Positions 513-48,289 of a stretch of 64,000 nt of DNA are shown here, in pieces. A program made the translations under genes and the position numbers. Source of the DNA: an uncultured Gammaproteobacteria bacterium (GTDB lineage: Bacteria > Patescibacteriota > Microgenomatia > UBA10105 > UBA927); NCBI GenBank assembly GCA_964445435.1, contig CAYUKU010000005.1:6627-70626 (forward strand), written 5' to 3'. Position 1 is the first letter of the stretch, and every line of letters begins with the position of its first letter. The notes under the pieces are model-generated. The model did not search any database. It was not told the DNA's origin and saw only the letters and a list, made by a program, of their open reading frames with translations.

Positions 513-559
513 ATTGTGTGGGTGACCATGGAGTCGGACCATGCGCCTCTTTCTTATCA
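513..559. repeat. 47-bp direct repeat, copy 2
   Basis: Perfect duplicate of 405-451, separated from it by a 61-bp unique spacer. Confidence 0.8.
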
Positions 560-728
560 GGAAAGCGTTCTACCGCTGAACTAGTCACCCTTCTGGGACA
601 GAAACTACGTTTCAATCCCCGCGATACTTCCTACCAAGGTGTCGCAAAGGGTTCAGTTCCGTTCGCACACCTTTGCGACAATTATATTCGATTTTATCAC
701 GATCGTGCCGCTTACGCAGTAATCGGAT

Positions 729-2619: not shown

Positions 2620-4011
2620 TTAGTTATAAATTACGACTCTCGTCCCGATATCCGCGAATTGGTAGACATATTTCGCGTCGCCCACGCCCAGCGCCACACA
2701 GCCTCCTGTGTTGGGTTGTCCGATGAAATTTGGCTTGCGATACTCCTGCCCGTTAATAAGTTTGTAGGGAGTTTCATGGATACCGAAATAGGCGTTCAAT
2801 TCCTCACTGTACTTAAATCCCATCCAGTACGGGAGCCACGACTTGTAGATGTTTGAGAATCCGAGCCCCGTTTTATTAAGAATTGTAAATTCACCCGTGG
2901 GTGTAGGATAGTCCAGACCTGTCGAGACGCGAAACGTTTTTATGAGCCTTCCGTCCTTGAAAAGGTACATTTTCTGCTGAGAGATATCGACCTCGATGTA
3001 TTTATCGGTTATCGATCCGGTTGTATTGGGCCCGGTATCGATGCTGATGGTGAGGGCGTCCACGGTATGTCCGTCATATCGGTTGGTAAGGACGGCCTGG
3101 AGATCCTCAATGACCTTCGGGGTGACGACGTTGCCCCGGATGATGAGTTTGAGCTTTTTGACTTTTTCGTTGACGGTTGTAGTCAAAGGCGCTTCTTTTA
3201 CCCCTATGGTGACGGATGTCTGGTCTTCCGACAGCTGAATATCAGTCATATCCGCAAGTTCCTTTTCGGTGAGGATAAACGCTTGTGACGTGCCTCCGGT
3301 GTCCACCAGAACGGTGAGCGGGGTGAGAAATACGTTTTTCATCCGATTACTCGTATCGGCGATCAATTTCGCTTTTTCGTTTTCGATTCTCGTGAGTTTG
3401 GGATAGAGGGGAGCGGTATTGTCCCCGATCCGTTGAGAAAGAAGCCGCATGAAGTACTCCTCATCGATCCGGTAGCGTTCTTCGTTTTCCACATAGACGA
3501 GTGACTTTTGCTGGTCATCGAAGTAGATTTCATCGGGAGCCTCGCTGAATTCAAAAACGGTCTGTTTGATATATTCACTGAATTCCTGGGTAAACGTGAG
3601 GGGAGCTTCTATCGTGGCGGGAATGAAAAACGACTTCACAAGGGTGTAGATATTGAAGGGGAGCGGCGCACGGTTCCGCGCAAATATCGCCTGCTTGATC
3701 CTTTCGTTATCCAAAACGACGCCCAGTTTGGAGTAGATGTACGTATACTCGCGGTCTCGCACCCGCACGCGGTACGGAAGAAGGGCAAACGAATCGATGA
3801 GATGGTCCACTTCGCTGACGCTTTTACCGGAGATGTCGATCGTGCCGAGCTTTGTATGAGGATACACCCACCAGGTCGCGTAAATTTGTGAGGCGGCGAG
3901 GAGATACAAAATAAATAAGGTAAACAGAAGAAGTTTTACGCGTTTACGAAGCATCCATACACGCTTAGCGTAGTAGGTTGCCCGATGAAGGTGGATCAGA
4001 TGTTTTCTCAT
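2620..4011 (-). CDS. L,D-transpeptidase (YkuD/ErfK domain) with N-terminal membrane anchor
   Basis: C-terminal HETPY...NTGGCVALG matches the YkuD catalytic His/Cys motif. An N-terminal TM segment is present. The start may instead be the internal Met at 3954. Confidence 0.75.
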   Translation of the reverse strand: MRKHLIHLHRATYYAKRVWMLRKRVKLLLFTLFILYLLAASQIYATWWVYPHTKLGTIDISGKSVSEVDHLIDSFALLPYRVRVRDREYTYIYSKLGVVLDNERIKQAIFARNRAPLPFNIYTLVKSFFIPATIEAPLTFTQEFSEYIKQTVFEFSEAPDEIYFDDQQKSLVYVENEERYRIDEEYFMRLLSQRIGDNTAPLYPKLTRIENEKAKLIADTSNRMKNVFLTPLTVLVDTGGTSQAFILTEKELADMTDIQLSEDQTSVTIGVKEAPLTTTVNEKVKKLKLIIRGNVVTPKVIEDLQAVLTNRYDGHTVDALTISIDTGPNTTGSITDKYIEVDISQQKMYLFKDGRLIKTFRVSTGLDYPTPTGEFTILNKTGLGFSNIYKSWLPYWMGFKYSEELNAYFGIHETPYKLINGQEYRKPNFIGQPNTGGCVALGVGDAKYVYQFADIGTRVVIYN

Positions 4012-4014
4012 TAT

Positions 4015-4159
4015 ACCGGGTTGTGAAATTTCGACTTTGCCTTAACGCTTTGCTCTCGAAAGTTCAGCTTCCTTTCTTTGGTATTTCCTCTTTCTCTCCA
4101 GATAGTCGCTCCACGCGCAGGCAAAGAGAGTACAAGCGTGTCGAAATTCTACTACCCGG
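4015..4159. repeat. Family A nested-palindromic intergenic element, copy A1 (145 bp)
   Basis: Terminal inverted repeats ACCGGGTTGTGAAATTTCGAC and GTCGAAATTCTACTACCCGG, plus an inner inverted pair CTTTGCCTTAACGC / GCGCAGGCAAAG. The left end abuts the L,D-transpeptidase start codon. Confidence 0.8.
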
Positions 4160-4212
4160 ATAGGTTAACGGTAGCAGATTGCCGTGACCTCGTAAACGTG
4201 CGTCTTTGATAC

Positions 4213-4241
4213 TTGCCTCATTGTGACCGTTTGACTATACT
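4213..4241 (+). promoter_or_regulatory. sigma70-like promoter of dcd (TTGCCT-17-TATACT); predicted start site at the ATG, so leaderless
   Basis: The -10 box TATACT lies at 4236-4241, 7 nt before the ATG at 4249. Confidence 0.5.
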
Positions 4242-4248
4242 GTGACGC

Positions 4249-4818
4249 ATGATTCTCTCCGATCGGGATATCAAAAAGGCGCTTAGAAGCGGTCATATTC
4301 ACATTTCTCCGGCACCGAATTTCGCTTCACAACTCGGCAGCTGCATGATCGATCTTCAGCTGGGCAATACATTCCGCGTGTTTAACCACAGCAAGACGCC
4401 GTACCTCGATCCGCAGGACCCCAAGACGCTGAAGGCCGCAACTGCCGAAGTGGTCATGCGAAACGGTGAGCCATTCATTCTTCATCCGGGTGAATTTGTG
4501 CTGGCTATGACGCGCGAGTACGTCGAAATGCCCGACGACTTGACGGGCAGACTGGAAGGCAGATCCTCAATTGGGCGTATGGGCGTAGTGGTCCACTCGA
4601 CAGCAGCCAATATCGAGTGCGGATTTCGGGGAAACATTACGCTCGAGCTTGCCAATATGGGTCGGATTCCGGTAATGTTATATCCCGGTATGCGGATTTG
4701 TTCGCTGTCGTTTGAACAGCTCACGAGTCCCGCAGACGTGCCGTATTACAAGAAGAAGGGTGCCAAGTACGTAGGCCAGAAAAAACCTGAGGCGAGTAAA
4801 ATCGCGCAGGAAAAATAG
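4249..4818 (+). CDS. dcd: dCTP deaminase
   Basis: Full-length alignment by eye to Dcd: MILSDRDIKKAL..., GRSSIGRMG, PGMRICSLSFE. Confidence 0.9.
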   Translation: MILSDRDIKKALRSGHIHISPAPNFASQLGSCMIDLQLGNTFRVFNHSKTPYLDPQDPKTLKAATAEVVMRNGEPFILHPGEFVLAMTREYVEMPDDLTGRLEGRSSIGRMGVVVHSTAANIECGFRGNITLELANMGRIPVMLYPGMRICSLSFEQLTSPADVPYYKKKGAKYVGQKKPEASKIAQEK

Positions 4819-4821
4819 CAT

Positions 4822-6354
4822 ATGGAATGGCCGATTCTATACAAACAAGTACTTCAGGTGAAAGATCCTACCAATCCGGTGGGTGTTGCCATCATGTGGA
4901 CCGAGCGGCAGGTTGTCGCCAATTTACTCAAAAGCGAAAATTACTGTGCCATCGGCAATCTCTACTCATCCGCCGGAATTTCCGCCATGATTCGCAATGT
5001 ATACGCCAATCCCCATATCCGTAAGATTGTGCTGTGGGGAGCGGATCTCTCCCGAAGCGGCCAGGCGCTCATGGCCCTCATGCAAAACGGCGTGGATGAA
5101 AATTTCTTTATCATCGGCGATGAGAAGAAAGGACAGATCGAGAAGGAAATCGGCCGCGAGGCAGTCGAATTATTTAGGAAATCCGTCGAGGTGGTCAATC
5201 TGCGCGGCAAGCCCGTATCCGATCTACAGAAGACAGTCGGACAGTTAAGCCGGACGAAATTCGACCCGTTCACGGATCCCAGGACGTTTCCGACAAGCCG
5301 TCCCAAGCCATTCACGTTCCCAAGCGAGCAGATTGGAATTCGCGCCCACGGACAGACGGCTGCCCAGACATGGCTGAAGATTCTTCAGAATATCATGCGT
5401 TACGGGCGCAACAAGACGACCCGCTACACCCAGGAGAATGAACTGAAAGAGCTCCTCAACGTCATGGCAGTCGTGTACAACGAAGATCCGGACAAGCCCT
5501 ACTTGCCGCACTATTTTCCGTTTTCGGAGAAAGACCTCGTGACGTATTATCCCCAAGTGTTATCAGCGAAGCAGATTCCCGGCATAGCCTATACGTATGG
5601 TCAGAGATTGCGTGATCACGATGGTGTGGATCAAATCCAAAACATCATTGACCTTATAAAAAACAGGCCGTTTAGTAAGAAAATGGCTGCCTTCACCGCG
5701 AAGGTGAAAGAAGACTGGTCTGTCGTCAACAAAGGGGACACGCCCTGTCTCACGCAGGTTCTTTGCAGCATTCAGGACGGTAAGCTCTTCATGACGACCC
5801 ACTTCCGAAGCCAGGACATGGTACACGGCTGGCCCCGAAACGTGTTCTCGCTTCGCAAACTGCAGAAGTTCATTGCCGATGAATCAGGCTATCCCATGGG
5901 TGCGTTTGTCATGATTACCCACTCTGCGCATATTTACAGTGACGATTACGAGCTTGTTGAGAATATCCTGAAAGATAACTATGACAAAGAGCTTGGATAC
6001 ACGAGCCGTCAGATGTTTGAGGAAGACATGCGCGGCAATGTCGTCATTGAAATTGAAGAAGTTGCGAAAAACGGTGTTGGCAGGCCCACCAAATATGCTG
6101 AAAAACCGCCGGTGAAAAAAGATTTCGAGATCGTGGTAAAACTCTACGCCCCCAACGGCGGCTTACTTCTCAAAGAATGGCGTGGGAAGACTGCAATGGA
6201 ACTCTATATTGAGATGGTGAATATCGGTGACTATCTCGTACTACCAAGTCACCTTATCTATATAGGCACGGAACTCCAGAGGGCTGAATACGCCATCAAA
6301 ATGGGCAAGCCCGAGAAGTTTAGCCAGGACCCCGCAGCCAACAAGGAACTATAA
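4822..6354 (+). CDS. ThyA-fold (thymidylate synthase / dNMP hydroxymethylase-like) three-domain protein
   Basis: Central region carries ThyA motifs: a TPCL nucleophile Cys in place of PCH, the RSQD...N substrate-binding segment, and HIY. About 160 aa of unknown N-terminal domain and about 140 aa of extra C-terminal domain are added. Confidence 0.65.
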   Translation: MEWPILYKQVLQVKDPTNPVGVAIMWTERQVVANLLKSENYCAIGNLYSSAGISAMIRNVYANPHIRKIVLWGADLSRSGQALMALMQNGVDENFFIIGDEKKGQIEKEIGREAVELFRKSVEVVNLRGKPVSDLQKTVGQLSRTKFDPFTDPRTFPTSRPKPFTFPSEQIGIRAHGQTAAQTWLKILQNIMRYGRNKTTRYTQENELKELLNVMAVVYNEDPDKPYLPHYFPFSEKDLVTYYPQVLSAKQIPGIAYTYGQRLRDHDGVDQIQNIIDLIKNRPFSKKMAAFTAKVKEDWSVVNKGDTPCLTQVLCSIQDGKLFMTTHFRSQDMVHGWPRNVFSLRKLQKFIADESGYPMGAFVMITHSAHIYSDDYELVENILKDNYDKELGYTSRQMFEEDMRGNVVIEIEEVAKNGVGRPTKYAEKPPVKKDFEIVVKLYAPNGGLLLKEWRGKTAMELYIEMVNIGDYLVLPSHLIYIGTELQRAEYAIKMGKPEKFSQDPAANKEL

Positions 6355-6364
6355 TAGCCTATAG

Positions 6365-6393
6365 TTGCAAATTAGCCTCCTGAGGAGTATACT
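6365..6393 (+). promoter_or_regulatory. sigma70 promoter TTGCAA-17-TATACT; downstream ATG at 6404
   Basis: Near-consensus hexamers with an exact 17-nt spacer. The predicted start site is 3-4 nt before the ATG at 6404. Confidence 0.55.
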
Positions 6394-6403
6394 ATTGCCC
6401 TCT

Positions 6404-6853
6404 ATGGCCAGTCCGCGCAGGCGCCACAAAATCCATTTCCAGCCCCTCTATTTGTGGGATTATGACGGCGTATGGGTACAGGCATCAAAAGATTCCTACT
6501 CCATCATGTGGGCGGCAATCGGCGGCATATTGGAAAAACAGGCACACCGTCCCGCCTCTGACATGGACGGCCTTAACTGGACCAAAATATTTGCCGATAC
6601 AAAGGGATTTACGGAACATACATTCGTTACCACCGTATTTGAAGCACTGGGGATTCAGCCGACTGACCGTGACCGCCTGTTTACGCATTTTATCCAGGAA
6701 CGCGCCGAACTTATCCGGTATTACAACGCGAAACATGGGCTTCGCAAGTTCGATGACCACAACGTCTATATCGACACCCATACGCTTGCAGTCAAACTGT
6801 CAGAGCGGTTTCCCGATGCCCTGCACGGACTAGTAACGGGTAACCCCCAGTGA
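6404..6853 (+). CDS. HAD-superfamily nucleotidase-like protein, N-terminal part; ends at an in-frame TGA
   Basis: LWDYDGVWV resembles HAD motif I (DxDGV, as in NT5C-type deoxyribonucleotidases). The reading frame continues into 6881-7393 across a single TGA. Confidence 0.45.
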   Translation: MASPRRRHKIHFQPLYLWDYDGVWVQASKDSYSIMWAAIGGILEKQAHRPASDMDGLNWTKIFADTKGFTEHTFVTTVFEALGIQPTDRDRLFTHFIQERAELIRYYNAKHGLRKFDDHNVYIDTHTLAVKLSERFPDALHGLVTGNPQ

Positions 6854-6880
6854 GTCATTGAACAGCGCCTTCCTGAACGG

Positions 6881-7393
6881 GTGCAGAATATCTTTCATAT
6901 CCGGATTGGCGGGGAGTACGGGAAGACGCGTCGGGATATGCTGGAACTAGCCGTGATTCACGCACGGAAACTGGGATGGCGGGGATACAAGGATGAAGGC
7001 GGCATGTATGTGAATGCCTTTTACTTCGACGATGCGAAGGCCGGTGCATTTTCCGCACTTGAGGGCGGGTTTCGAACGGTATTATTGGACCGACCGGATA
7101 TTCAGGAAGCGCATATGAGAATATTTGACCCGGCAGTATTGAATGACACGGTTGTGGAAGAAGTGCTTGATCGGTTCGGACCGGATAATACGCGGCGGAT
7201 CATCATCGGGGAGCCGGGCGTGACAACACAGTCGCTCTTCACGACCGCGACATTGGATAACTACTGGCTCCTCCGTCCCGCTGAGCATACCCATGTGAAG
7301 TTTCACGGCTGGCTGCAGCCTGCTATGCATGCGCTCTGGCAAGTGCATGAAGATGAGCCCCGTGAAGTTGCGTTTCGCGGGAAGGAAATGTAA
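6881..7393 (+). CDS. HAD-like protein, C-terminal part, in frame with 6404-6853 (possible split gene or pseudogene)
   Basis: Same frame as the upstream ORF, 27 nt after its TGA. Contains YFDDAKAG...LLDRPD, which resembles HAD motif IV. Confidence 0.4.
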   Translation: MQNIFHIRIGGEYGKTRRDMLELAVIHARKLGWRGYKDEGGMYVNAFYFDDAKAGAFSALEGGFRTVLLDRPDIQEAHMRIFDPAVLNDTVVEEVLDRFGPDNTRRIIIGEPGVTTQSLFTTATLDNYWLLRPAEHTHVKFHGWLQPAMHALWQVHEDEPREVAFRGKEM

Positions 7394-7413
7394 CAATCGA
7401 AGAGGCTCAACGT

Positions 7414-9432
7414 ATGAACAGAATTGATCAATTGGAGAGACAGCCGTCCGGGGAACGGGGGAATATTGTCCAAACACAAATCCTTGTCCGGCCGGATTTG
7501 GGGAAGTTCGACGATGAACGGCGTGAGCGGTGGGAAAAGTTTGACAACCAGCAAATTGCAGTTCAGGCATGGACACAGGGTGACGCACCGCATGTGACCC
7601 CGGATGAGATGCACCGGTTGCTCGCTGACGACGATACCCTGAAGATCGTGATTGGCAATGGGCTTGCGGCTGACTCAACGCAGCTGGACAACTCCGTATC
7701 TCTCGTGCGGACGATATTTGCTCAGCTGGCCTCCCACCAAACCTTGAAAGATAAAAAGGTCGTTATTCTCGGAATGTCGCTGAACGGTTTTCCCGGAAGT
7801 CTTTTTCGATCGGATTTCGTACCGACACCGGCCGATGTCCATCCCGATGAGTTTGCAGGCATGATCGACGACGCCCTTACCGACATGCAGTGCTCGCCTG
7901 ATTCCACGGTGGTGGCCGGTCATAGTTCTGGAGGTGAAACGGCCTTGCGTCTAGCAGACAAATACGCGACGGTTGCTTTGCATCCGGCCATCGGCGCCAA
8001 TACGACGCAGGATATATTCTCAATTCTTGAATCACTGGAGGGAATTTCCGACAAATTCGGATTTATCGCCGACAAAGCGGAAAATATTCCGGGCGTTGGG
8101 AGGTTTGTAAAATCGTTTATTAATAGCCGACGCGAAGATCTCACAAACGCCGTTCTGAAGTGGCTTGTGAGTGACAAAACCACTGCGATATCCAAGGATA
8201 TTGCATATCAGGTGGCCATGCATGTCCGGTGTAAGCAGCTGGCCGGGCCTGCATACGGCGCAAAATTGGCCGAGTTATCTCATATAGATGTGAATCCGTT
8301 TGGGCGGTTGGCAGACGCGAAGTTTAAGCCGATTGTCCTTCGATCGCATGGCGGTGATCGCCTCACCAAACAGGAAGCGACCGAGTATTACCTTTCGGAA
8401 TTACAAAAACATGGCCTGAATGTCATGGTAACCTCCGAAATATCTCCTGCCCTTCGCGGGGTTATCGATTTTGACGAAACATATACCTATGGTCATGACG
8501 CACCCTTTCTCATCCAGGAGGCATGTGATACTGCAGCCGCTGCAATTATCGTCCAGTTACAGAATGTCGAGCGCGTTCGCCAGGAAAAGAAGCGCTCGGC
8601 GGTCGTTGAAGCGCCACCGGTGCGGGAAGAGCCAAAAATAGAATCGCACGCCGGTTTGGAAGTCGATCCGTTCGTTGCAAAGGAACGGCGTGATTTTGCT
8701 CTGCAGCAATTTACCGATCTTATCGTAAGTGTGAAACGGTTATTGCAGGAAACCAACACCAAACTCGACGTCCACTTCCAAATCGTAGATGAGTTTACCG
8801 CTGCTGGTTTGGATGAGTATCTGGTACGGGCGGTGGAGATGCCGGAGAGTGAATTTTTGAAGTATCTGGATGGGGCGGATGTGCATTACGGATCTTTTTT
8901 CGCCAAACTAGCACAGATGGAATTGACATTGGCATGGAAAAAAGCGCTCGTGGCAGGGAGAGCCGGCGCTTCGCAGCGGGAAATTGCGGATATCGCATTC
9001 AACACCGTCGGGCTTCGTGCCGCTTGGGCGCGTTTGCATAGCCATGACACGGTGACCTCGCAGCAGCAATTGCGGGAGACTCCCAACACAATTGCGGGGC
9101 TTGATGGCTTTGCGCTTATGGATAGCATCATATTCGATGCGCACAGAACACACGGAATGGCGATCAGTGTTGTCTCCATGGCATCAAGTGACAAGCGGTA
9201 TAACGATTTATACGAGGCGAAACAATTGGTAGGGTGGTCAATCGCGATGCACGATGCTGATATACCGAACCAGAATATTCTGGATCTTTCCGAAGAAAAG
9301 TTTCACAGCATACTCACGGCACTTGAAGAGGAACTTGCATATAGGCTTCAGACGCCGATTCAACTGCATGAACAGGATTTTGCGCTCATGGCGGATATCA
9401 TGGCACAGGATACTTCGTCCACCCAAATGTAG
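7414..9432 (+). CDS. large alpha/beta-hydrolase-fold protein with long helical C-terminal region; function unknown
   Basis: 672 aa. GHSSGG nucleophile elbow (GxSxG) near residue 170. No other motifs recognised. Confidence 0.45.
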   Translation: MNRIDQLERQPSGERGNIVQTQILVRPDLGKFDDERRERWEKFDNQQIAVQAWTQGDAPHVTPDEMHRLLADDDTLKIVIGNGLAADSTQLDNSVSLVRTIFAQLASHQTLKDKKVVILGMSLNGFPGSLFRSDFVPTPADVHPDEFAGMIDDALTDMQCSPDSTVVAGHSSGGETALRLADKYATVALHPAIGANTTQDIFSILESLEGISDKFGFIADKAENIPGVGRFVKSFINSRREDLTNAVLKWLVSDKTTAISKDIAYQVAMHVRCKQLAGPAYGAKLAELSHIDVNPFGRLADAKFKPIVLRSHGGDRLTKQEATEYYLSELQKHGLNVMVTSEISPALRGVIDFDETYTYGHDAPFLIQEACDTAAAAIIVQLQNVERVRQEKKRSAVVEAPPVREEPKIESHAGLEVDPFVAKERRDFALQQFTDLIVSVKRLLQETNTKLDVHFQIVDEFTAAGLDEYLVRAVEMPESEFLKYLDGADVHYGSFFAKLAQMELTLAWKKALVAGRAGASQREIADIAFNTVGLRAAWARLHSHDTVTSQQQLRETPNTIAGLDGFALMDSIIFDAHRTHGMAISVVSMASSDKRYNDLYEAKQLVGWSIAMHDADIPNQNILDLSEEKFHSILTALEEELAYRLQTPIQLHEQDFALMADIMAQDTSSTQM

Positions 9433-9449
9433 CCTTCTCACGACTTTTT

Positions 9450-9477
9450 TTGCTTTTTTCCCTGTCTTTCGTACAAT
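9450..9477 (+). promoter_or_regulatory. promoter (TTGCTT-16-TACAAT) giving a leaderless start at 9484
   Basis: TACAAT lies at 9472-9477 and the ATG is 7 nt downstream. Confidence 0.4.
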
Positions 9478-9483
9478 CATGCT

Positions 9484-10314
9484 ATGACACAGGATCTCCG
9501 CATCGCCTTCATGGGCGATATTACCGCCGACAAATACATGGATACCAGTTCCGTGAAGTATGGCGGAGCTGCTCTCAATATGGCAATGTGGGCCAAACGC
9601 ATCGGGATTGTCCCGGAAATCGTTTCTGCGGTGGGGGATGATCAGATAGGAGACGAATTTCTCAACCTCCTTGTGGATGAGAATCTTTCCTCGGCGTGCG
9701 TCCAGCAGAAACCGGGAAAAACATCAGCCATTGAAATCTTCCTGGAGAACGGCGAACGGCGATATGGTACGTGGGAACCGGGCGTGCTTTCTTCATACCA
9801 TGTACGAACCGAAGATTTTGAGATTCTGCAGAATGTCGATGCTATCGCTATTACCGTCTACCCCGCATATCTCAATGTGCTGGAAGAGTTTTCTCAATGG
9901 AGACAAACACAGGCTCCTGAAGAGCGCCCGCTGCTATGCATCAATTACGGCGATCTGAAAGAATTCGGAAACAGTATCGATATTCCCAAACAATATATCG
10001 ATAGTGCGGATATTCTGGTATTTGGGCTGGATAGCGAGAAGGATGCTGCCATTATAAGGGACGTACAGACACTATCACGGCCGGATACGTTGATTGTCAC
10101 GACATTAGGAAAGCATGGTTCCCGCGTCCGCGTAGGGCTGGGAGAGTTTTTTCAGCCGGCGTTTGATGCACATGTTGTTGATACGACGGGAGCCGGAGAT
10201 TCGTTTCTTGTCGGATTTCTGTCGGACTACCTCACGCGGGCAGATGTATCCAAAGCCCTTATTGCGGGATCACAGCTTGCGGTCAAAGCCATTTCTACAA
10301 TCGGCGCGTACTAG
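9484..10314 (+). CDS. PfkB-family carbohydrate or nucleoside kinase (ribokinase-like)
   Basis: DTTGAGDSFLVGF is the PfkB signature 2. Confidence 0.8.
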   Translation: MTQDLRIAFMGDITADKYMDTSSVKYGGAALNMAMWAKRIGIVPEIVSAVGDDQIGDEFLNLLVDENLSSACVQQKPGKTSAIEIFLENGERRYGTWEPGVLSSYHVRTEDFEILQNVDAIAITVYPAYLNVLEEFSQWRQTQAPEERPLLCINYGDLKEFGNSIDIPKQYIDSADILVFGLDSEKDAAIIRDVQTLSRPDTLIVTTLGKHGSRVRVGLGEFFQPAFDAHVVDTTGAGDSFLVGFLSDYLTRADVSKALIAGSQLAVKAISTIGAY

Positions 10315-10723
10315 ATTTTCCGCTGCAGGATTGGCATATCCCGAAAAATTCGAGGGAATGGGATGTGACGGTAAACTTCGTCTGTTTTTCAACAACTCGT
10401 TCCAGATCCGCTTCCATAATTTCGGAAACGTCGCGCATGCTTCCGCATGACGTGCAGATGACATGATGGTGATGCGCCCGGTCAGCGCGTTCGTAGCGGA
10501 ACTTGCCTTCGCCCAATTCGATCCGTTTGACGAGTCCTGTCGTGACGAACACGTCAAGAATGCGGTATATGGTTACCGGATCGACGTCAAGTTTTCTGAC
10601 CGCCGGGTATGCGCGTACCTCTTCGACGCTCAAAGGGAGGCTTCCTTTAGTCAACGCCTCCATGACTGCTACCCGTGCCCTTGTCGGCCTGATGCCACTT
10701 TTCGCAAGCGAATATGTATTCAT
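10295..10723 (-). CDS. Fur-family transcriptional regulator (Fur/Zur/PerR)
   Basis: A helix-turn-helix N-terminus is followed by HHHHVICTSCG...CxxC metal-site motifs. Confidence 0.85.
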   Translation of the reverse strand: MNTYSLAKSGIRPTRARVAVMEALTKGSLPLSVEEVRAYPAVRKLDVDPVTIYRILDVFVTTGLVKRIELGEGKFRYERADRAHHHHVICTSCGSMRDVSEIMEADLERVVEKQTKFTVTSHSLEFFGICQSCSGKSSTRRL

Positions 10724-10817
10724 GACAGTATATTATGCAACTTATTTGCATCTGTCAAAATGGTGCGCTCGGAGTTTCTGACTTGACATACTGGTTTTGA
10801 CAATTCATAGTAAAAGT

Positions 10818-11696
10818 ATGTTCGATCAGCTAATTGCGTTTGTTCTCTTAGGGTTAGGCTTGAAGACGCCGCTCACCGAAAGCGCGCCTGCACGTGTCGC
10901 ATATTCACAGTCCCAACAGTCCGTTCTATCAAGCAGCGATTCAAACGATGACGATTCCGAGCACGATGGCAGCGGCGGGAGCTCTTCCGGCAGCAATACA
11001 TCGGGAAGCGGATCGGGAAATGACAACGAAGACGAAAAAGAGGATGACCATGACGGCGCTTCCGGAGCATTCGGACCGACGGGGATATTCCCTGCGAAAA
11101 ACAGGATTTCCATTCAGCTGAAGGAGGCACATGATATCTACCGTGCCGAGCTTCAGAAGGATCATGAGGTCTGGAACGGTGAGCTAAGAGCAAAACTCGA
11201 AGCCGCCAAGAAACAGCACGAAGCCAGACGCGAGGCGCTGAAAAAGAAGTTAACGACACTGAGAGACGAGCGCAAAAAGACGATTATCACCAAGCTTCAG
11301 GACCGTTTCGATGAGGTAAATCGGAAGCGTCTCGAGCGCATGACCGAGAATCTCAAGAAGATCGAAGAGGTTCTCATGCATATCGAGGAGAAGGCAGCTG
11401 AGCAAAAAGAGCAAGGCAAGGACACCTCATCTGTCGACACCGCCGTCGCAAGCGCCCATACGGCGATAGATGCGGCAAAGGCGGCCCTCACCACGCAGGC
11501 GGGGAAAGAATATGTGATTACGATCAACTCGGAAACGACGGCGAAAAACGACGTCGGCCAGACGCGCCGGACGCTCGAAGCGGATCTGAAAGCCGTGCAC
11601 GGGAAAATCGTCGCCGCGCGCAAGGCTGTAAGTAATGCTATCCGCGCATTAGCACGACTTCGCGGAGAAGAGATCCCTGAGGAGGTCATCAAATGA
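10818..11696 (+). CDS. secreted coiled-coil protein with Ser/Gly/Asp/His-rich low-complexity segment
   Basis: Signal-peptide-like N-terminus MFDQLIAFVLLGLGL. An acidic S/G/D/H tract is followed by a Lys/Glu-rich coiled-coil. Divergent from the Fur-family gene. Confidence 0.5.
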   Translation: MFDQLIAFVLLGLGLKTPLTESAPARVAYSQSQQSVLSSSDSNDDDSEHDGSGGSSSGSNTSGSGSGNDNEDEKEDDHDGASGAFGPTGIFPAKNRISIQLKEAHDIYRAELQKDHEVWNGELRAKLEAAKKQHEARREALKKKLTTLRDERKKTIITKLQDRFDEVNRKRLERMTENLKKIEEVLMHIEEKAAEQKEQGKDTSSVDTAVASAHTAIDAAKAALTTQAGKEYVITINSETTAKNDVGQTRRTLEADLKAVHGKIVAARKAVSNAIRALARLRGEEIPEEVIK

Positions 11697-12001
11697 AAAC
11701 AAAAATGCCTCTCTTGTTTCTTATCCCCATGATTGCCATCATTCTCGTCGTCGCGGGTGCCGCGCTTGTCCGCATGTTGTCCCGGCCGGCAACCGAAGTG
11801 GCACAGACGACGGAGTATCCCTCATTGGATGAATCGACGAACAAGCCTTCTTCGTTTTTGGGAAAACTGTTTGGCGGCGGTACGACGCCGGCCCCGACGC
11901 CGGCCTCGAGTGATGATCTCGCGCGGGAACTCAAAAACACCGTCGATGACGGGGGACAATCCGATTTTGACGCGCTAGAGAAGGAATCCGAAGGCCTGTA
12001 A
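11693..12001 (+). CDS. small membrane-anchored protein
   Basis: 102 aa with an N-terminal TM helix. Its start overlaps the upstream stop (ATGA). Confidence 0.4.
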   Translation: MKTKMPLLFLIPMIAIILVVAGAALVRMLSRPATEVAQTTEYPSLDESTNKPSSFLGKLFGGGTTPAPTPASSDDLARELKNTVDDGGQSDFDALEKESEGL

Positions 12002-12087
12002 GACCCCATCAAGCTTGACACCGCCTTCATCGTTGTCTACCATACTCTTGGAGGTACCGTAAAAGAGTGCGGAAATTGGAAATTTTT

Positions 12088-12245
12088 AAGCGTGTGGCCC
12101 GCCGGCGAGGCGGGATACGAGGGAAGGGCGTATCGAAATAATCTGCGGGTGCCCTTTGGTAGTTGCTCCCTACCACAACAGCGATTCGGAAACCTCCCGG
12201 TAACGGAAGAACAACGAAGCTGACGGAGTCCGCCTCTTATCATCG
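12088..12245 (+). ncRNA. glmS ribozyme-like 5' leader (glucosamine-6-phosphate-responsive self-cleaving riboswitch), putative
   Basis: A 230-nt leader sits between a TTGACA-17-TACCAT promoter (12015-12043) and the glmS ATG. It contains ACGAGG...ATCGAA...TCTGCGGGTGCCCTT, which parallels the B. subtilis core ACGAGG..UAUCGAAUU..UCGGCGGAUGCCUCC. It also has GGTAACGGAAG (compare GUAAGGA) and a GAAGGGC/GCCCTT stem. Confidence 0.45.
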
Positions 12246-12279
12246 AAAAATCGTTTTTTATTTTCCGAAGGAGTGTTCT

Positions 12280-14061
12280 ATGTGTGGAATTTTTGGCTAC
12301 GTGGGTCCGTCACCCAAGGCGACATCATTGGTTCTTAAAGGTCTTAAGGATCTTGAATATCGGGGGTATGACAGCTGGGGCATCGCCGCAGTTCCGGATA
12401 ATTCAAACGGGCACGGCAAGATCGTCGTGAAGAAAAAGACGGGGAAAATCGGCAACGCCACGCCGGAAGGGTTTCCCGCCAGCTCATTTGCCTTCGGGCA
12501 CACGAGATGGGCGACACATGGCGGTGTCACGGATATAAACGCGCATCCCCACCTGGACTGTACGGGGACTATTGCCATCATCCATAACGGCATTCTGGAA
12601 AACTATATGGAGATCAAGGAGAAACTTCTGAAGAAAGGTCACCGATTTATCTCCCAAACGGATACCGAAGTCGCGGTTCATCTCATCGAGGAATACGCCA
12701 AAACCATGCTTTTCAGCAAGGCGGTCCAGAAGGCATTCAATGAGATGACGGGTCTCAATGCATTCATTGCCATGAATACGAAGATTAAGCAGTTCGTCGC
12801 CGTGCGAAACGGCTCGCCATTAGTCGTCGGGTTCGGGAACAAGGAAAACTACCTGGCGTCAGACGCGGCCGCCCTTTTGCCGCATACCAAGCAGGTGCAT
12901 TTTCTTGAGGACGATGAGATGGCGATTGTTACACAAAAAGGCGCCATGATATTCAACGCGCGGACGGGAGCCCATGTCGCACCGCGTAAACAGCTTCTTA
13001 CCTGGTCCCTGGCGCAGGTGGAGAAAGGCAGTTATCCGTATTTCATGCTGAAAGAGATCCATGAACAGCCGGGAATTCTGGCGGATATCGCAGCAGATGG
13101 CGCCAACAGAGCGGTAGAATTGGCGAAGGTCGTGAAGAAAAGCCATGACGTTGCCATCATCGGTTGCGGGACGGCGAGCTACGCGAGTCTTGCCGGATCT
13201 ATCTTGTTTAACAAGATTGCCAAGCGGCCGGTCACGTGGGTGATCGGAAGCGAATTTGATGACGAGGTCCAGTTTTTGGGTCCGTCGAGTCTGGTTATAG
13301 CCCTGTCTCAGTCCGGAGAGACGATGGATACGCTTGAGGCAGTGCGCAAAGCCAAGAAGAAAAAGGCGAAGATTCTTTCCATCGTCAACGTCATGGGGTC
13401 GACCCTGTACCGCGAGAGTGATTATCAGCTTCTCATAGGTGCAGGTCCGGAGAAGGGTGTTGCTTCGACGAAGGCGTTTACCGGGAAAATCGCCCACACG
13501 CTTCTTCTGGCTTACGCGTCAGTCGGGAAGGTCGGGGATGGGCAAAAAATGCTGACCAAAGCAGCGCGTGTGGCCAAGGAAATACTGTCGGAGAAATCCG
13601 TTTCCCGGATTAAGACGCTTGCCAAGCGCATCGCCAAAAACGAACACGCCTATGTCATCGGCCGCGGCATGAGTTATCCAACCGCCCTCGAGACGGCGCT
13701 TAAGATCAAGGAGATCTCCTACATTCACGCGGAAGGGTTTGCCGCGGGGGAGCTCAAGCACGGAGTGATTGCGCTTATCGAAGAAGGAACGCCGTGCATC
13801 GCGTTTCTCCCCAACGACGAGACGTACGCAGCGAACCTGGCTGGCGCCATGGAGATGAAGGCGCGCGGCGGGTACATCATCGGGGTATCGCACAAACCCC
13901 ACGAGATATTTGATTACTACATTCCGGTGAAGGATGTGGGACCGGCAACGCTCATCCCCAACGTCATGGTTGCCCAGCTTTTGGCCTATTACCTGACGAT
14001 TGAGCGCGGGTTTGATCCCGACATGCCGCGCAATCTGGCCAAAAGCGTGACGGTAAAATAG
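12280..14061 (+). CDS. glmS: glutamine--fructose-6-phosphate aminotransferase
   Basis: Starts MCGIFGYVG (N-terminal Cys nucleophile) and ends with SIS domains. RBS AAGGAG is present. The ORF-track start at 12163 is too far upstream. Confidence 0.95.
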   Translation: MCGIFGYVGPSPKATSLVLKGLKDLEYRGYDSWGIAAVPDNSNGHGKIVVKKKTGKIGNATPEGFPASSFAFGHTRWATHGGVTDINAHPHLDCTGTIAIIHNGILENYMEIKEKLLKKGHRFISQTDTEVAVHLIEEYAKTMLFSKAVQKAFNEMTGLNAFIAMNTKIKQFVAVRNGSPLVVGFGNKENYLASDAAALLPHTKQVHFLEDDEMAIVTQKGAMIFNARTGAHVAPRKQLLTWSLAQVEKGSYPYFMLKEIHEQPGILADIAADGANRAVELAKVVKKSHDVAIIGCGTASYASLAGSILFNKIAKRPVTWVIGSEFDDEVQFLGPSSLVIALSQSGETMDTLEAVRKAKKKKAKILSIVNVMGSTLYRESDYQLLIGAGPEKGVASTKAFTGKIAHTLLLAYASVGKVGDGQKMLTKAARVAKEILSEKSVSRIKTLAKRIAKNEHAYVIGRGMSYPTALETALKIKEISYIHAEGFAAGELKHGVIALIEEGTPCIAFLPNDETYAANLAGAMEMKARGGYIIGVSHKPHEIFDYYIPVKDVGPATLIPNVMVAQLLAYYLTIERGFDPDMPRNLAKSVTVK

Positions 14062-14153: not shown

Positions 14154-14317
14154 AGCAGCGTAGCAAACAATTTTTTGCGACAACTGAGCGTTCGCATAAT
14201 GTCATGGAGTTTAATCGTGATATGCGAACGCTCACTTAGCGAACGACGGGAAGTACTCATCGATCAGTGATTATCATCAGGTGAGCAGGTCGCTGAAAAT
14301 TCGTTTGCGAAGCTGCT
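14154..14317. repeat. Family B nested-palindromic element, copy B1 (164 bp)
   Basis: Terminal inverted repeats AGCAGCGTAGCAAACAATTTT / AAAATTCGTTTGCGAAGCTGCT and inner stem GAGCGTTCGC / GCGAACGCTC. Lies between the convergent glmS and HD genes. Confidence 0.8.
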
Positions 14318-14328
14318 TCTGGAGGGCG

Positions 14329-14979
14329 TTAGTATTTAATCACAAATTCCTTGAGGAGTTTTTTCTCCGTCTTTCCGCCGATAATTGCCTTTACTTCGAA
14401 GTATTGCTCCACCCCTGAATGGGAGAGTTTTTCTTTCAGAAGCTCGTCGACCTGGAAGATGCCCGCCGAGTTGCTCATCGTGATGTAGATTTCAATCGGG
14501 CGGTCTTTGCCTTCTTTTATTTCCACGCCTTCGACGGCATACGCGGAGAGCGAATGGATATTTACTTTTCCTGCCTCATAGGGAATGCGGGAGCGGCCGC
14601 TACTCATATCAAGTGCGTCGGCGATCCGTACGATGCCGGCCTCTTTGGTAAGCGGTCTTCCGTCAGATCGGTGACTGATGATGGCGTGAAGCGTTTCAGA
14701 GATGACAATCGTTCGTTCCGAAATGGGCATAAACGAGAGCGTTTCCCGAAGAAGCGAATTTGCCAGAAACAGGCTATATGTTTCGTGGTCAATGCGGTGG
14801 ATGGACATCCCAAGATCATGGAGAATGCTTGCAAGTACGATGACCACTTCGGCATGCTGTTGGGTGAGTTTGTAGTCTTTCACGATGGACATCTGGATGT
14901 TGTTTTTCTCAAGAATCCGCGCAAGTCGAAGTGCGATATTTGCCACAATCTGGAAATGGACGGGTCCGTGATCGCTCAT
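14329..14979 (-). CDS. HD-domain phosphohydrolase (possibly a YfbR-like 5'-deoxynucleotidase)
   Basis: H...HD...H...D motifs: DHGPVHF, ILHDLGM, TLHAIISH, VRIADALD. The ORF-track N-terminus at 15489 overlaps the dNK gene, so the start was trimmed to the Met at 14979. Confidence 0.55.
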   Translation of the reverse strand: MSDHGPVHFQIVANIALRLARILEKNNIQMSIVKDYKLTQQHAEVVIVLASILHDLGMSIHRIDHETYSLFLANSLLRETLSFMPISERTIVISETLHAIISHRSDGRPLTKEAGIVRIADALDMSSGRSRIPYEAGKVNIHSLSAYAVEGVEIKEGKDRPIEIYITMSNSAGIFQVDELLKEKLSHSGVEQYFEVKAIIGGKTEKKLLKEFVIKY

Positions 14980-25170: not shown

Positions 25171-25334
25171 AGCAGCGCAGCAAACAATTTTCAAAGACAA
25201 CTGAGCGTTTGCGCTCGCAAAGTGAGGATTTCTTGAGTATGCAAACGCTCATTTAGCGAGCAATGGGTACGATTTCACGGTCAAAAATGTCATACGGTGA
25301 GCGGGTCTTTGGAAAATTTGTTTGCAAAGCTGCT
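25171..25334. repeat. Family B element, copy B2 (164 bp)
   Basis: Terminal inverted repeats AGCAGCGCAGCAAACAATTTT / AAAATTTGTTTGCAAAGCTGCT and inner stem GAGCGTTTGC / GCAAACGCTC. Lies between tsf and the frr promoter. Confidence 0.8.
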
Positions 25335-25339
25335 TTTGC

Positions 25340-25368
25340 TTGACCAATTCTGATTCATAGCGTAATAT
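25340..25368 (+). promoter_or_regulatory. frr promoter TTGACC-17-TAATAT; predicted start site about 4 nt before the ATG at 25379
   Basis: Hexamers with an exact 17-nt spacer. The first in-frame ATG at 25367 lies inside the -10 box. Confidence 0.5.
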
Positions 25369-32283: not shown

Positions 32284-33657
32284 ATGTCATTTTACCGAAG
32301 ATACCGCCCGATGGTGATTGACGAGATAGACAATGTCTCGGTGAGGAATGCGCTTCTCTCGCTTCTTACGAAGCCGAGGAAGGATCTGCCGCATGCATAT
32401 TTTTTTAGCGGCCCCCGGGGTGCCGGGAAAACAACGGCTGCCCGTGTGGTCGCCAAACTCTTTAACTGTGAAAAACCGGGGAAAAAGGGGGCATGCGGTG
32501 TTTGTGACCAGTGTGTTGCTATCGCAGACGGCCGGAATCTAGACGTCCTTGAGCTTGATGCCGCAAGCAATCGTGGTATTGACGAAATTCGGGCATTGAG
32601 AGACGGCATAGCTCTGGCTCCCGTCGCGGGCAAATACAAAATCTATATCATTGACGAAGTGCACATGTTGACGACGGAAGCGTTCAACGCGCTTCTTAAG
32701 ACCCTCGAAGAACCTCCCGCTCACGCGGTGTTTATTCTCGCTACCACGGATCCTCAGAAAGTTCCCGGTACGATTGTGTCCCGGTGCGTTCCGTTTATTT
32801 TTGCGAAGGCGAGCCCCAAGGAACTGCGAAGCGCCCTGTCCCGTATCGTCGAGGTGGAAAAGTTGACCATCAGTGACGATGCGCTTGAACGGATCGCCGA
32901 AGCGGCTGACGGATCGTTTCGCGACGCGGTCAAATATCTTGAGCAGGTGTCCTTTCATTCAGGCGCGATTGACCTTGTTGCCGTTGAGCGGATTTTGTCC
33001 TTGACGGCTGCCGGTTCGGCAGGTGAGTTTCTTGCAGCGGTATTTGCCCGCGATGCCAAGAAGGCACTATCGCATATCCAGACGATGGAATCCGCTGGTG
33101 TCGACATCAAATCTTTCATAACGCAGTGCTTGCGGGTCATGGAGCAGGCCCTTGTTGCCATGGCCAAAGGTGTTAAATCACCGCTTGACGTGGATGCGGA
33201 TTTTCTCAGGCGCGTGATCCGTACGTTTGCCCTTGCGCACGCGGAGATGAAGACTACGGCAATCGCCCAGTTGCCGCTTGAGCTTGCTGTCATTGAGCTG
33301 TGTGAAGAAGATAGGCCGCACGAGGCCGTACCGCCGAAAGAAGTGCCGCAGACTCCCGCAACCAGCACGGTTAAAAAAGAGCCGAAGCCCGACGTTACGA
33401 CACTCACCGTTGAGAAGCTTGCTGACCACTGGCCGGACCTCATTGCCGCGCTTAAGCCATATAACCATTCGGTAGCGGGCGTCATGCGCTCTACTAGACC
33501 GAAAGCCGTTGAAGGTGGTATAGTGGTGATCGAAGCATATTATACCTTCCACAAAGATAAGCTGTCCGAATCCAAAACCCGTGATATATTATGCGAGGTT
33601 TTGAAGAAACTCTTTGGCGAGAAAGTAAAAGTAGAAGTCGTATTGGGAAAAAAGTAA
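32284..33657 (+). CDS. dnaX: DNA polymerase III subunit gamma/tau
   Basis: AAA+ motifs GPRGAGKTT, the Zn module CGVCDQC and SRC. Confidence 0.9.
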   Translation: MSFYRRYRPMVIDEIDNVSVRNALLSLLTKPRKDLPHAYFFSGPRGAGKTTAARVVAKLFNCEKPGKKGACGVCDQCVAIADGRNLDVLELDAASNRGIDEIRALRDGIALAPVAGKYKIYIIDEVHMLTTEAFNALLKTLEEPPAHAVFILATTDPQKVPGTIVSRCVPFIFAKASPKELRSALSRIVEVEKLTISDDALERIAEAADGSFRDAVKYLEQVSFHSGAIDLVAVERILSLTAAGSAGEFLAAVFARDAKKALSHIQTMESAGVDIKSFITQCLRVMEQALVAMAKGVKSPLDVDADFLRRVIRTFALAHAEMKTTAIAQLPLELAVIELCEEDRPHEAVPPKEVPQTPATSTVKKEPKPDVTTLTVEKLADHWPDLIAALKPYNHSVAGVMRSTRPKAVEGGIVVIEAYYTFHKDKLSESKTRDILCEVLKKLFGEKVKVEVVLGKK

Positions 33658-33669
33658 AAGGAGGCTCAT

Positions 33670-33936
33670 ATGATGAATCCATTTAAGATGCTCGGTGACA
33701 TAAACGCCATGCGTAAACAAGCCATGGCAATCCAGCAGGCACTCGAGAAGGAAGAGTTTGAAGTAGTGCAGGGCAATGTCCGCATCCTTATAAGCGGCAA
33801 CCAGAACGTGAAGATCGTCGAGATCGACGGTGTAGCCGACGAAAACATACGCCGCGCGATTAACGACGCCATTAAACGCTCCCAGCAGGCGGCTGCAGGC
33901 AAGCTTGCCGAATTATCCAAGTCCATGGGTCAGTAA
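33670..33936 (+). CDS. ybaB: nucleoid-associated protein YbaB/EbfC
   Basis: 88-aa YbaB pattern. Confidence 0.85.
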   Translation: MMNPFKMLGDINAMRKQAMAIQQALEKEEFEVVQGNVRILISGNQNVKIVEIDGVADENIRRAINDAIKRSQQAAAGKLAELSKSMGQ

Positions 33937-39670: not shown

Positions 39671-39775
39671 AGGCAGCGCGAGAAACCATTTTGAAGACAA
39701 CTGCGCGTTTGCTCGGATTATTGAAGTTTCGCTGAATATGCAAACGCGCATTTAGTGAACAATGGGGCTGCGCCT
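39671..39775. repeat. Family B element, copy B3 (truncated, about 105 bp)
   Basis: GGCAGCGCGAGAAACCATTTTGAAGACAACTGCGCGTTTGC...GCAAACGCGCATTTAGTGAACAATGGGG. The inner stem has compensatory GC-to-CG changes relative to B1 and B2. Confidence 0.7.
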
Positions 39776-39901
39776 CATGATATATTCCAGCATGAGTGAA
39801 CGTGTCTTCATAAATGCGTTTCACGCGATGCCACGTGGTTATGAATAGAATTCTTTGGCTTCGCACAGGAGATGTTGCACGCGATGCATTTGATTTAAAT
39901 T

Positions 39902-43685: not shown

Positions 43686-43781
43686 AGCGGCGAAGTGACT
43701 CTATCAAAGACAACTGAGCGTTAACCCGACCTGGTAGTGAGTTTCCTGAATATGTGAATATTCATTGAGCGAACGATGGGA
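43686..43781. repeat. Family B element, copy B4 (degenerate, about 96 bp)
   Basis: AGCGGCGAAGTGACTCTATCAAAGACAACTGAGCGTT...ATTGAGCGAACGATGGG. The right end lies 8 nt before the ATG of the next gene. Confidence 0.6.
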
Positions 43782-43789
43782 ATGTCCGT

Positions 43790-48060: not shown

Positions 48061-48206
48061 ACCGGGTTGTGAAATTTTGACCTTTGCCTTAACGCGTTTG
48101 TTCTGAACATGCAGCTTCCTTTCCTGTCGAATGAACTTTTTTCCTGACCAGAGAGTCTCTCCACGCGCAGGCAAAGAACAAAGCGCGTGTCGAAATTCTA
48201 CTTAGC
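48061..48206. repeat. Family A element, copy A2 (about 146 bp)
   Basis: ACCGGGTTGTGAAATTTTGAC...CTTTGCCTTAACGC...GCGCAGGCAAAG...GTGTCGAAATTCTACT. About 80% identical to A1. The left end abuts the start codon of 47677-48060. Confidence 0.8.
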
Positions 48207-48254
48207 ATATCTACATTGTTCCATTCCCATAACACCATGTCAAGCTGTTTCAGG

Positions 48255-48283
48255 TTGTCCGACGTACTTGTATACGATACAAT
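48255..48283 (+). promoter_or_regulatory. promoter TTGTCC-17-TACAAT, leaderless start at 48290
   Basis: The -10 box ends 6 nt before the ATG. Confidence 0.5.
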
Positions 48284-48289
48284 CAGTAA

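Follow-up and report, generated by a model that had tools for sequence, protein, structure and literature searches.

What kind of sequence can be repeated at the very start codons of genes, and how might such genes still be translated? The question is raised by a 64,000-nucleotide (nt) stretch of contig CAYUKU010000005.1 (assembly GCA_964445435.1), which comes from an uncultured member of the Patescibacteriota and is hereafter referred to as the window. It holds three elements, A1 to A3, of approximately 142 to 147 nt with 20-nt terminal inverted repeats (TIRs). All three were found where the original prediction, made from the letters of the window, had placed them, with ends that are refined in Table 1. 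In the window scan, the TIR CCGGGTWGTRRAATTTYGAC has 5 occurrences at up to 3 mismatches versus 0.01 expected, which bears out the claim of terminal inverted repeats of about 20 bp, and its 13-nt core has 6 occurrences versus 0.8 expected; the scores with covariance model R1 are 110 bits for A1, 84.5 bits for A2, and 121.5 bits for A3. The original prediction offered two explanations, a mobile element resembling a MITE (miniature inverted-repeat transposable element) that supplies a bidirectional 5′ module and a divergent promoter/operator cassette. As described below, the element is mobile and is best read as a nonautonomous TIR transposon, i.e., a MITE, of Patescibacteria, the candidate phyla radiation (CPR) bacteria. 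The reading that we favor, with a probability of about 0.6, is that of a MITE with a transcribed leader that is under selection for keeping the interrupted gene translated or for coupling its translation.

A mobile element on start codons

The TIR was scanned for exactly in one genome per species, and a metagenome scan was added; the numbers of copies given here are counts among the matches listed. In the one-genome-per-species scan, the TIR occurs mostly as pairs 118 to 124 nt apart, in “Candidatus Gottesmanbacteria” and other metagenome-assembled genomes (MAGs) of Patescibacteria, with at least 7 loci in each of two MAGs. After removal of duplicates, the genome and metagenome matches listed comprise at least 90 nonredundant long copies (116 to 162 nt, plus one doubtful 217-nt pair) and at least 11 short, hairpin-only relatives of 58 to 80 nt with the same ends. 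The latter (L005 6329-6393, L013 2624-2681, L040, L117, L122, L152, and L156, among others) come from other Patescibacteria, including a Paceibacterota MAG, and one gene start carries a 73-nt form in L137 and a 116-nt form in L126. The two repeats of an element differ from each other (GTAGAATTTC versus GTGAAATTTC) in 83 of 85 cases. The window copies belong to subfamily A; subfamily B combines the same ends and the same location with another interior, a GC hairpin whose G·U pairs and, in one copy, UUCG loop appear only in the sense-strand reading.

The element is bounded by target-site duplications of 3 to 5 bp, usually 4 bp, that differ by site. The long forms are flanked by TATG (38 copies), ATGA (10), TAT (4), ATG (3), TATGA (2), and TATGG, TGAAG, and CATG (1 each), and the short forms by arbitrary 4- to 5-bp repeats (TCAA, CGTA, TTTG, CAAA, CACAG, and TATG). 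Because these flanking repeats change with the site, insertion without duplication, of the REP or IS200/IS605 type, is ruled out. Orthologous sites were found in both the empty and the filled state. Thus, L010 reads ...TTGCTATACTtgaagatgTATGcctgcc, and L026 reads ...TTGCTATACTttaaggtgTATG(138 nt)TATGcctgcc, with the TATG duplicated; further such pairs are L128/L066 (in both directions), L065/L062, and window position 33670/L090. The A3 site is empty in L158, where the gene for a homologue of the 230-aa (amino acid) product of 58521-59213 and a Vut_1 gene are divergent and approximately 55 nt apart, and the element is missing from the gap; this locus and the window have in common a conserved TG-TATAAT box and a conserved Vut_1 N terminus (MF..IEK.DLLVS.YIFC). 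In L024 and L018, the insertion has split an ATGA in which the stop and start codons of two transporter genes ancestrally overlapped, so that the upstream copy of the duplication provides the TGA stop and the downstream copy the ATG. Copies also accumulate next to and within each other: locus L104 (Ga0315284_10000677; 12.4 kb) has at least 6 copies in approximately 8 kb (4650-12389), including a tandem pair (10686-10968) with one TATG in common and a 33-nt TIR-only mini-hairpin nested in the copy at 10200-10383.

The element is therefore what a MITE is expected to be, a small, multicopy sequence with TIRs, target-site duplications, and empty orthologous sites, and it is noncoding, its reading frames being short and variable. 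With site-varying duplications, empty and filled sites, and tandem and nested copies in many genomes, the first half of the original prediction holds as far as mobility is concerned. No transposase with the same TIRs, of the IS1380 family or otherwise, was found in the 157 loci, the window, or the viral contigs; as a lead only, the mobilizer might belong to that family of piggyBac-related transposases, in which termini begin with CC and target duplications are 4 to 5 bp long.

The long copies reside on start codons. All of the first 24 copies have a start codon between 1 nt inside and 4 nt beyond the proximal repeat, opening a long open reading frame (ORF), and in 19 of them it directly follows a single T. 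The original prediction had called for a count of further copies in related genomes and of their placement, and this came out in its favor: 82 of 90 long copies in the larger set have an ATG adjoining one end, at a distance of 0 to 1 nt, from which an ORF of 50 aa or more runs, with ORFs on both sides in 6 copies of that set. The short forms lie mostly away from start codons. Long forms persist almost only where the duplication covers the start codon (TATG, ATGA, or CATG), and the gene keeps an ATG right behind the proximal TIR. Some copies are kept at orthologous sites across species, e.g., before a 550-aa gene with a GroEL-like N terminus and before a 112-aa gene. By their N-terminal sequences, the downstream genes resemble those for ribosomal proteins L31, L6, and S19, MurA, Ser- and Asp-tRNA synthetases, TpiA, DnaG, RmlC, and GroEL, alongside ABC permeases and small secreted proteins; in the window, Pfam assigns YkuD and Vut_1 domains to genes downstream of elements. 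Such unrelated housekeeping genes do not make up a regulon.

The element is also directional. A3 had been thought to keep only the repeats and the structure; it in fact aligns with A1 and A2 across its full length once it is reverse-complemented, which means that A1 and A2 read the minus strand and A3 the plus strand and that the element is asymmetric and oriented. All 64 matches to the covariance model have the interior module pointing toward the gene, copies with swapped TIR polarity included; this polarity, taken relative to the gene, is not the same in subfamilies A and B, and a few A copies (L035 and L104) have it swapped. Since orientation tracks the interior and not the ends, selection on the sense transcript is indicated rather than a mechanistic insertion bias. 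The idea of a bidirectional 5′ module is not supported: the proximal end alone serves the gene, and the second ATG at A3 most likely comes from its palindromic CATG duplication.

A predicted pseudoknot in the sense strand

Read toward the gene, a subfamily A element begins with (T)ATG, the distal TIR strand P1a (CCGGGTAGTAGAATTTCGAC), P2a (ACGCU), approximately 6 nt, and P3a (GUUGC). Next come a proximal-repeat copy that has degenerated, a variable stretch rich in A and U, GAAAGGA, 3 nt, and the internal motif UGARAUUUCG(AC), and the element closes with P2b (AGCGU), AAAA, P3b (GCAAC), the proximal TIR strand P1b (GUCGAAAUUUCACWACCYGG), and (U)AUG. Helices P2 and P3 cross, i.e., they would form a pseudoknot, and both adjoin P1 with 0 to 1 nt between. 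Two features of the original prediction reappear here: the inner inverted pair CTTTGCC/GGCAAAG is real and corresponds to helix P3, and the recurring palindromic motif is real as a third, internal motif of the GAAATTTC type.

The structure statistics are based on the 64 covariance-model copies and 500 shuffles, P2 having been excluded from the model used for the alignment. Pairing was found in 90.4% of the cells, compared to 85.0% in the shuffles, and 15 pairs have changed on both sides, a number reached in 0 of the 500 shuffles. Covariation is seen at 5 of 6 pairs in P2 and at 6 of 6 in P3; P3 pairs over 6.7 bp within a copy versus 4.5 bp between copies, and each helix exists in approximately 30 distinct versions. 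Fold z-scores range from −3.2 to −3.7. These figures point to a folded RNA that is under selection and whose crossing helices are preserved by compensatory changes. The 20-nt TIRs pair in 91.8% of the cells, the outer pair of P1 being G-C in 37 copies and A-U in 25, and in the predicted fold the duplicated UAUG often lengthens P1 to a stem of 20 to 24 bp with the start codon inside.

The inner half of P1b has its complement in the internal motif UGARAUUUCG. In 70% of the long copies, versus 5% of shuffled interiors, 10 or more of 12 pairs can form, and 89% of the cells pair in the alternative helix that this motif and the proximal TIR would make. The motif varies only between A and G and between C and U, preserving wobble pairs with the proximal TIR in the sense strand, and covariation of the motif with the type of the proximal TIR is evident in subfamily A (43 to 4) but not in subfamily B (8 to 6).

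A long stem of this kind could also be a processing site. RNase III or self-cleavage of the 20-bp TIR stem would remove the insert and restore a leaderless or nearly leaderless mRNA, which this host translates; the stem is long enough for RNase III, its central tandem mismatch (A·C next to G·U) is retained in 62 of 64 copies, and there is a precedent in the Correia elements (PMC2649163, PMC2229807). Under such processing, however, the conserved pseudoknot and GAAAGGA would be needless, and the Shine-Dalgarno (SD) sequences and stop codons that abut the stem (see below) would be irrelevant, yet they appear selected. No known self-cleaving ribozyme family matches either, so we consider a processed leader improbable. 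Two ribozyme types were considered individually: a hammerhead-like CUGANGA core, inspected by eye, does not fit, nor does a hepatitis delta virus-like order of helices.

The same structure invites a comparison with riboswitches, with which the element shares a fold backed by covariation but not a set of functionally related genes. As a mobile cis-regulatory switch, its pseudoknot would respond to a ligand, to temperature, or to a protein by shifting between a closed P1, with the AUG masked, and a two-hairpin form, with the AUG free, placing many unrelated genes under one global signal. The predicted location of the start codon within P1, the possible mutually exclusive pairings of the proximal TIR, the A-rich linker of the pseudoknot, and the high conservation of loop nucleotides (GAAAGGA in 60 to 61 of 64 copies and G118 in 63 of 64) are what such a switch would lead one to expect. 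Against it, the downstream genes share no common function, subfamily B has a different interior at the same location, no ligand or binding protein can be deduced, and Rfam 15 gave no match at the gathering score and none credible at E values up to 10. This makes a sensory switch distinctly unlikely. A broader version, a transposable translational control module in which a mobile pseudoknotted RNA switch lands on start codons and spreads a regulon by transposition, is in our opinion doubtful; if true, any gene, including essential-looking ones (GroEL-, ribosomal protein-, or tRNA synthetase-like), could come under a common signal-dependent or ribosome-coupled gate in mostly leaderless bacteria.

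Probable leader position and a proposed role in translation

In most genes of the window, the ATG is preceded at 6 to 9 nt by a −10 box (e.g., 4236-4251, 48278-48292, 9470-9486, and 56100-56119), position −1 is a T, and an SD sequence is lacking, which suggests that the genome is largely leaderless and that TATG is an ordinary start context; the genes at 33670, 34943, and 55543 are exceptions with AAGGAGG. In approximately half of the copies, a −10-like hexamer begins 12 to 20 nt upstream of the first base of the element, whereas promoter scans of the copies revealed no promoter-like sites inside it. An A/T-rich hexamer before GAAAGGA was rejected as an internal promoter, as its final T is not conserved (17 of 64 copies). 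The element thus lies downstream of the gene's own promoter and is expected to be transcribed as a 5′ leader of the gene; the earlier suggestion that it supplies a promoter is not supported, the promoter-like sites being outside its distal end.

The second half of the original prediction, a divergent promoter/operator cassette with three GAAATTTC palindromes bound by a transcription factor, can be judged on the same evidence. The motif is indeed palindromic and present 2 to 3 times per element. However, orthologous promoters lack the element, its flanks bear target-site duplications, the genes form no regulon, promoters lie outside the element with none found inside, some copies are located within operons between an overlapping stop and start, and crossing helices that covary as in a single strand are unexpected for a double-stranded operator. 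We regard an operator cassette as very improbable.

The sequence just upstream of the element is informative as well. AAGGAG adjoins the distal TIR, with 0 nt between, in 5 copies representing at least 3 distinct genes, and this arrangement against P1a is seen at the gene with the GroEL-like N terminus in three genomes. An empty site of this type lies in the window at 33657-33672, before an 88-aa gene that starts at 33670 (AAAGGAGGCTCAT/ATGATGAAT, the slash marking the junction) and has a 77%-identical orthologue in L090. The empty site reads AAGGAGGCTCAT/ATG, i.e., AAGGAGG, 5 nt, and ATG; the filled one reads AAGGAG, 140 nt of element, T, and ATG, with the original spacer lost. In operons, the upstream gene's stop codon takes this place against the distal TIR; it is a TGA wherever the duplication is ATGA and a TAA in L062. 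An upstream ORF starting at the distal ATG was considered and set aside as probably incidental: such a frame of 10 to 38 codons is present in 33 of 64 copies, and a conserved TAG serves as its stop in 11 of the 33.

These arrangements can be accommodated by a bridging or unmasking mechanism, which we put forward tentatively. P1 would bring an upstream signal, be it the 5′ end of a leaderless mRNA, an SD sequence, or the stop codon that closes the cistron before it, to the side of the AUG, while masking the AUG itself. Ribosomes arriving from that signal would unwind P1, and the released proximal TIR (P1b) could then pair with the complementary internal motif. This would place the SD-like GAAAGGA at a path of approximately 12 nt (3 + 9 nt) from the AUG.

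Several observations weigh against the preferred reading, that of a MITE with a leader selected for translation. The mechanism of translation is something we infer throughout, and a GC-rich stem beginning at position −2 of the AUG should impede initiation rather than aid it. P1b, the partner of the internal motif in the alternative helix, is invariant and so lends this helix no covariation; counts of G·U versus A·C on P1 to P3 fail to single out a strand; and the length of the reading frame from the distal ATG is not conserved. As for mobility, about a quarter of the long copies have no recognizable duplication, no TIR pair more than 217 nt apart that might mark an autonomous element or transposase was found in the 157 loci and the window, and the viral contigs gave only 4 single TIR matches and no autonomous element. 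The interiors of the copies are just 50 to 66% identical, even inside one genome, and with no recent burst of transposition visible, the near-invariant TIR could reflect a host function instead of recognition by a transposase. The single TIR matches are ascribed to chance; the one that was checked belongs to a gag-like ORF encoding a zinc knuckle, the probable source being a eukaryotic retrotransposon.

Could the element then be purely selfish, with a transposase that prefers TATG or the region of transcription start, motifs and helices that serve transposition (the internal TIR-like motifs and helices being subterminal binding sites or a single-stranded DNA structure), and a host that merely tolerates the insert? 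The TIR sequence is near-invariant beyond what pairing demands, the internal motifs are TIR copies that have degenerated, a feature of transposons with several transposase sites, the tandem pair in L104 arose by reinsertion at the same TATG, and the short forms insert anywhere. On the other hand, the interior module faces the gene without exception despite swapped TIR polarity, P2 and P3 still covary while the interiors have drifted apart, copies are kept at orthologous sites between species, and the distal flanks are secondarily trimmed so that an SD sequence or a stop codon abuts the stem. A purely selfish element is accordingly unlikely in our judgment. If the leader does preserve translation, as we favor, the family illustrates how a compact, largely leaderless CPR genome can tolerate, and perhaps exploit, insertions at the nucleotide where a gene is most sensitive. 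It would offer a natural system in which to test how ribosomes, by bridging, unmasking, or coupling, gain access to an AUG that follows a structured insert of 140 nt, and, for uncultured Patescibacteria, a first way into the study of their mobile DNA and translation signals.

Known systems, window copies, and other features

Among the closest described analogs are the Correia repeat-enclosed elements (CREE/NEMIS) of Neisseria, MITEs of approximately 100 to 155 bp that have long TIRs and duplicate a short target and of which many copies lie by genes and are cotranscribed with them, the RNA stem of the TIRs affecting expression of the adjacent gene (PMC2649163, PMC2229807). They differ from the present element in duplicating TA, in possible promoters at their ends, in an integration host factor (IHF) site, and in having neither a bond to start codons nor a covarying pseudoknot; their TIR sequence and host phylum are also unrelated, so that the present element is not a member of the CREE/NEMIS family. 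The mycobacterial MIRU intercistronic repeats, as Supply et al. are said to have described in 1997, are oriented, with ends that overlap the upstream stop and downstream start codons, and keep translational coupling. The copies inserted between two ATGA repeats are similar in this respect; unlike them, MIRUs have no TIRs or comparable duplication, come as tandem units, and act via a small ORF rather than a folded RNA. Rickettsia palindromic elements (RPEs), palindromic and mobile sequences of approximately 150 bp, survive at normally lethal sites by a design that is compatible with expression (PMC10969869). RPEs, however, lie in frame within coding sequences and are translated, whereas the present element is untranslated, or carries a short incidental frame, and sits at the start codon. 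In none of these three families do start-codon residence, a regenerated ATG, a strict orientation, and a covarying pseudoknot occur together.

REP/REPIN (RAYT) and IS200/IS605-derived repeats are likewise small and hairpin forming, and the GTAG near the 5′ end of the arms recalls REPs; these sequences make no target-site duplication, and IS200/IS605 elements insert beside a fixed tetranucleotide, in contrast to the site-varying 3 to 5 bp found here. The likeness to pseudoknotted 5′ leaders of the riboswitch type consists in the covarying pseudoknot, the predicted placement of the start codon within a helix, and the possible alternative pairing; here the RNA rides on a transposon, with no known ligand or common gene function. 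Ribosome-binding sites that are split and bridged by a hairpin occur in phage T4 gene 38, and in the copies between AAGGAG and T-ATG, the stem would similarly join the SD sequence and the AUG. We know of no described MITE that lives on start codons, and a literature search on the motif, on MITEs in CPR bacteria, and on leaderless genes in Patescibacteria returned nothing.

Table 1. Coordinates of the three elements in the window and of associated features
Feature	Position	Strand	Remarks
A1 copy	4016-4159	minus	144 nt; reads toward YkuD-type L,D-transpeptidase gene 2620-4011
A1 proximal TIR (P1b)	4016-4035	minus	RNA sense GTCGAAATTTCACAACCCGG; then TATA, then ATG 4011-4009
A1 distal TIR (P1a)	4140-4159	minus	RNA sense CCGGGTAGTAGAATTTCGAC
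A1 pseudoknot 3′ strands (predicted)	P3b 4036-4042, P2b 4046-4051	minus	Partners P3a 4119-4125, P2a 4134-4139
A1 internal motif	4055-4067	minus	Complementary to proximal TIR
A1 GAAAGGA	4070-4076	minus	Conserved motif
A2 copy	48062-48208	minus	~147 nt; decaying copy
A2 proximal TIR	48062-48081	minus	Intact; then T, then ATG 48060-48058 of 127-aa secreted or membrane protein
A2 distal TIR	48189-48201	minus	Core alone left; outer 6-7 nt gone (ATGCTAA where CCGGGTA expected)
A2 promoter-like site	48215-48243	minus	TTGACA, 17 nt, TG-AACAAT; adjoins distal end; transcription would start at about the element's first nucleotide
Divergent gene 58521-59213, probable true start codon (M18)	59160-59162	minus	Homologues begin there; TATACT box 9 nt upstream
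A3 extended −10 box TGTATAAT	59197-59204	plus	7 nt before distal ATG, outside element; promoter of leaderless type; conserved in empty orthologous site L158
A3 CATG target-site duplication, distal copy	59211-59214	plus	
A3 copy	59215-59356	plus	142 nt; reads toward Vut_1/YhhQ-family gene 59358-60005
A3 pseudoknot 5′ strands (predicted)	P2a 59235-59243, P3a 59248-59254	plus	P2a ACGGCTTTC; P3a GTTTGCC
A3 GAAAGGAG	59299-59306	plus	
A3 internal anti-TIR motif	59308-59319	plus	
A3 P2b GAAAGCCGT	59318-59326	plus	
A3 A-rich linker	59327-59329	plus	
A3 P3b GGCAAAC	59330-59336	plus	
A3 proximal TIR (P1b)	59337-59356	plus	
A3 CATG target-site duplication, proximal copy	59357-59360	plus	Contains Vut_1 start codon 59358-59360

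The window copies were said to abut start codons at their ends, and A1 and A2 to be about 80% identical; both statements need qualification. A2 does adjoin a start codon, with a T between, and at A1, the ATG lies 4 nt beyond the TIR (CCCGG-TATA-ATG), but as a rule this applies to the proximal end and not to both. The A1 duplication is the 3-bp TAT (4160-4162 and 4013-4015). The identity between A1 and A2 amounts to 75 to 86% in ungapped blocks and falls to approximately 57% in the interiors when these are aligned to the covariance model. At A3, both ends are followed by ATG, inside the CATG...CATG duplication, as had been noted; that a divergent gene starts there is probably wrong. The start of 58521-59213 has probably been called 17 codons too far upstream, its real start at 59162 not being abutted by A3. 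Because the homologues begin at M18, which has its own TATACT box, the divergent gene would start 51 nt further on, and the palindromic CATG duplication most likely produced the ATG at 59213 by accident. The 230-aa product with the upstream start is present in a public NCBI record; exact lookups of the 230-aa and the 213-aa products had found no record of either. Gene callers may choose the wrong start beside such elements, as apparently happened here.

Several other features of the window, which is bacterial and has two tRNAs and approximately 51% GC, are listed here for completeness. A second family of nested-palindromic intergenic sequences (14154-14335, 25171-25365, ~39700-39900, and ~43708-43790) carries the motif ...AGACAACTGAGCGTTTGC...TGAATATGCAAACGCTCATTTAGCGAACAATGGG... 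and has an inner stem that covaries (GAGCGTTTGC/GCAAACGCTC versus GCGCGTTTGC/GCAAACGCGC) and, in two copies, an outer stem (AGCAGCG.AGCAAACAATTTT / AAAATT.GTTTGC.AAGCTGCT); 3 of the 4 copies are upstream of gene starts (25367, 39902, and 43790), and none has an Rfam match at the gathering score. At 405-454 and 513-562 lies a 50-nt direct repeat (98% identical, 108 nt apart); its second copy runs into the 3′ portion of tRNA-Ile (518-590, minus strand), and the repeat may represent either a tRNA fragment or a duplication of the att type. The 510-aa ORF at 4822-6354, directly after a dCTP deaminase gene, combines MtrA-like, thymidylate synthase, and pterin-binding (DUF4346) domains. Finally, a glmS ribozyme (52 bits) is found at 12078-12232, with a 632-aa ORF (12163-14061) that extends downstream.

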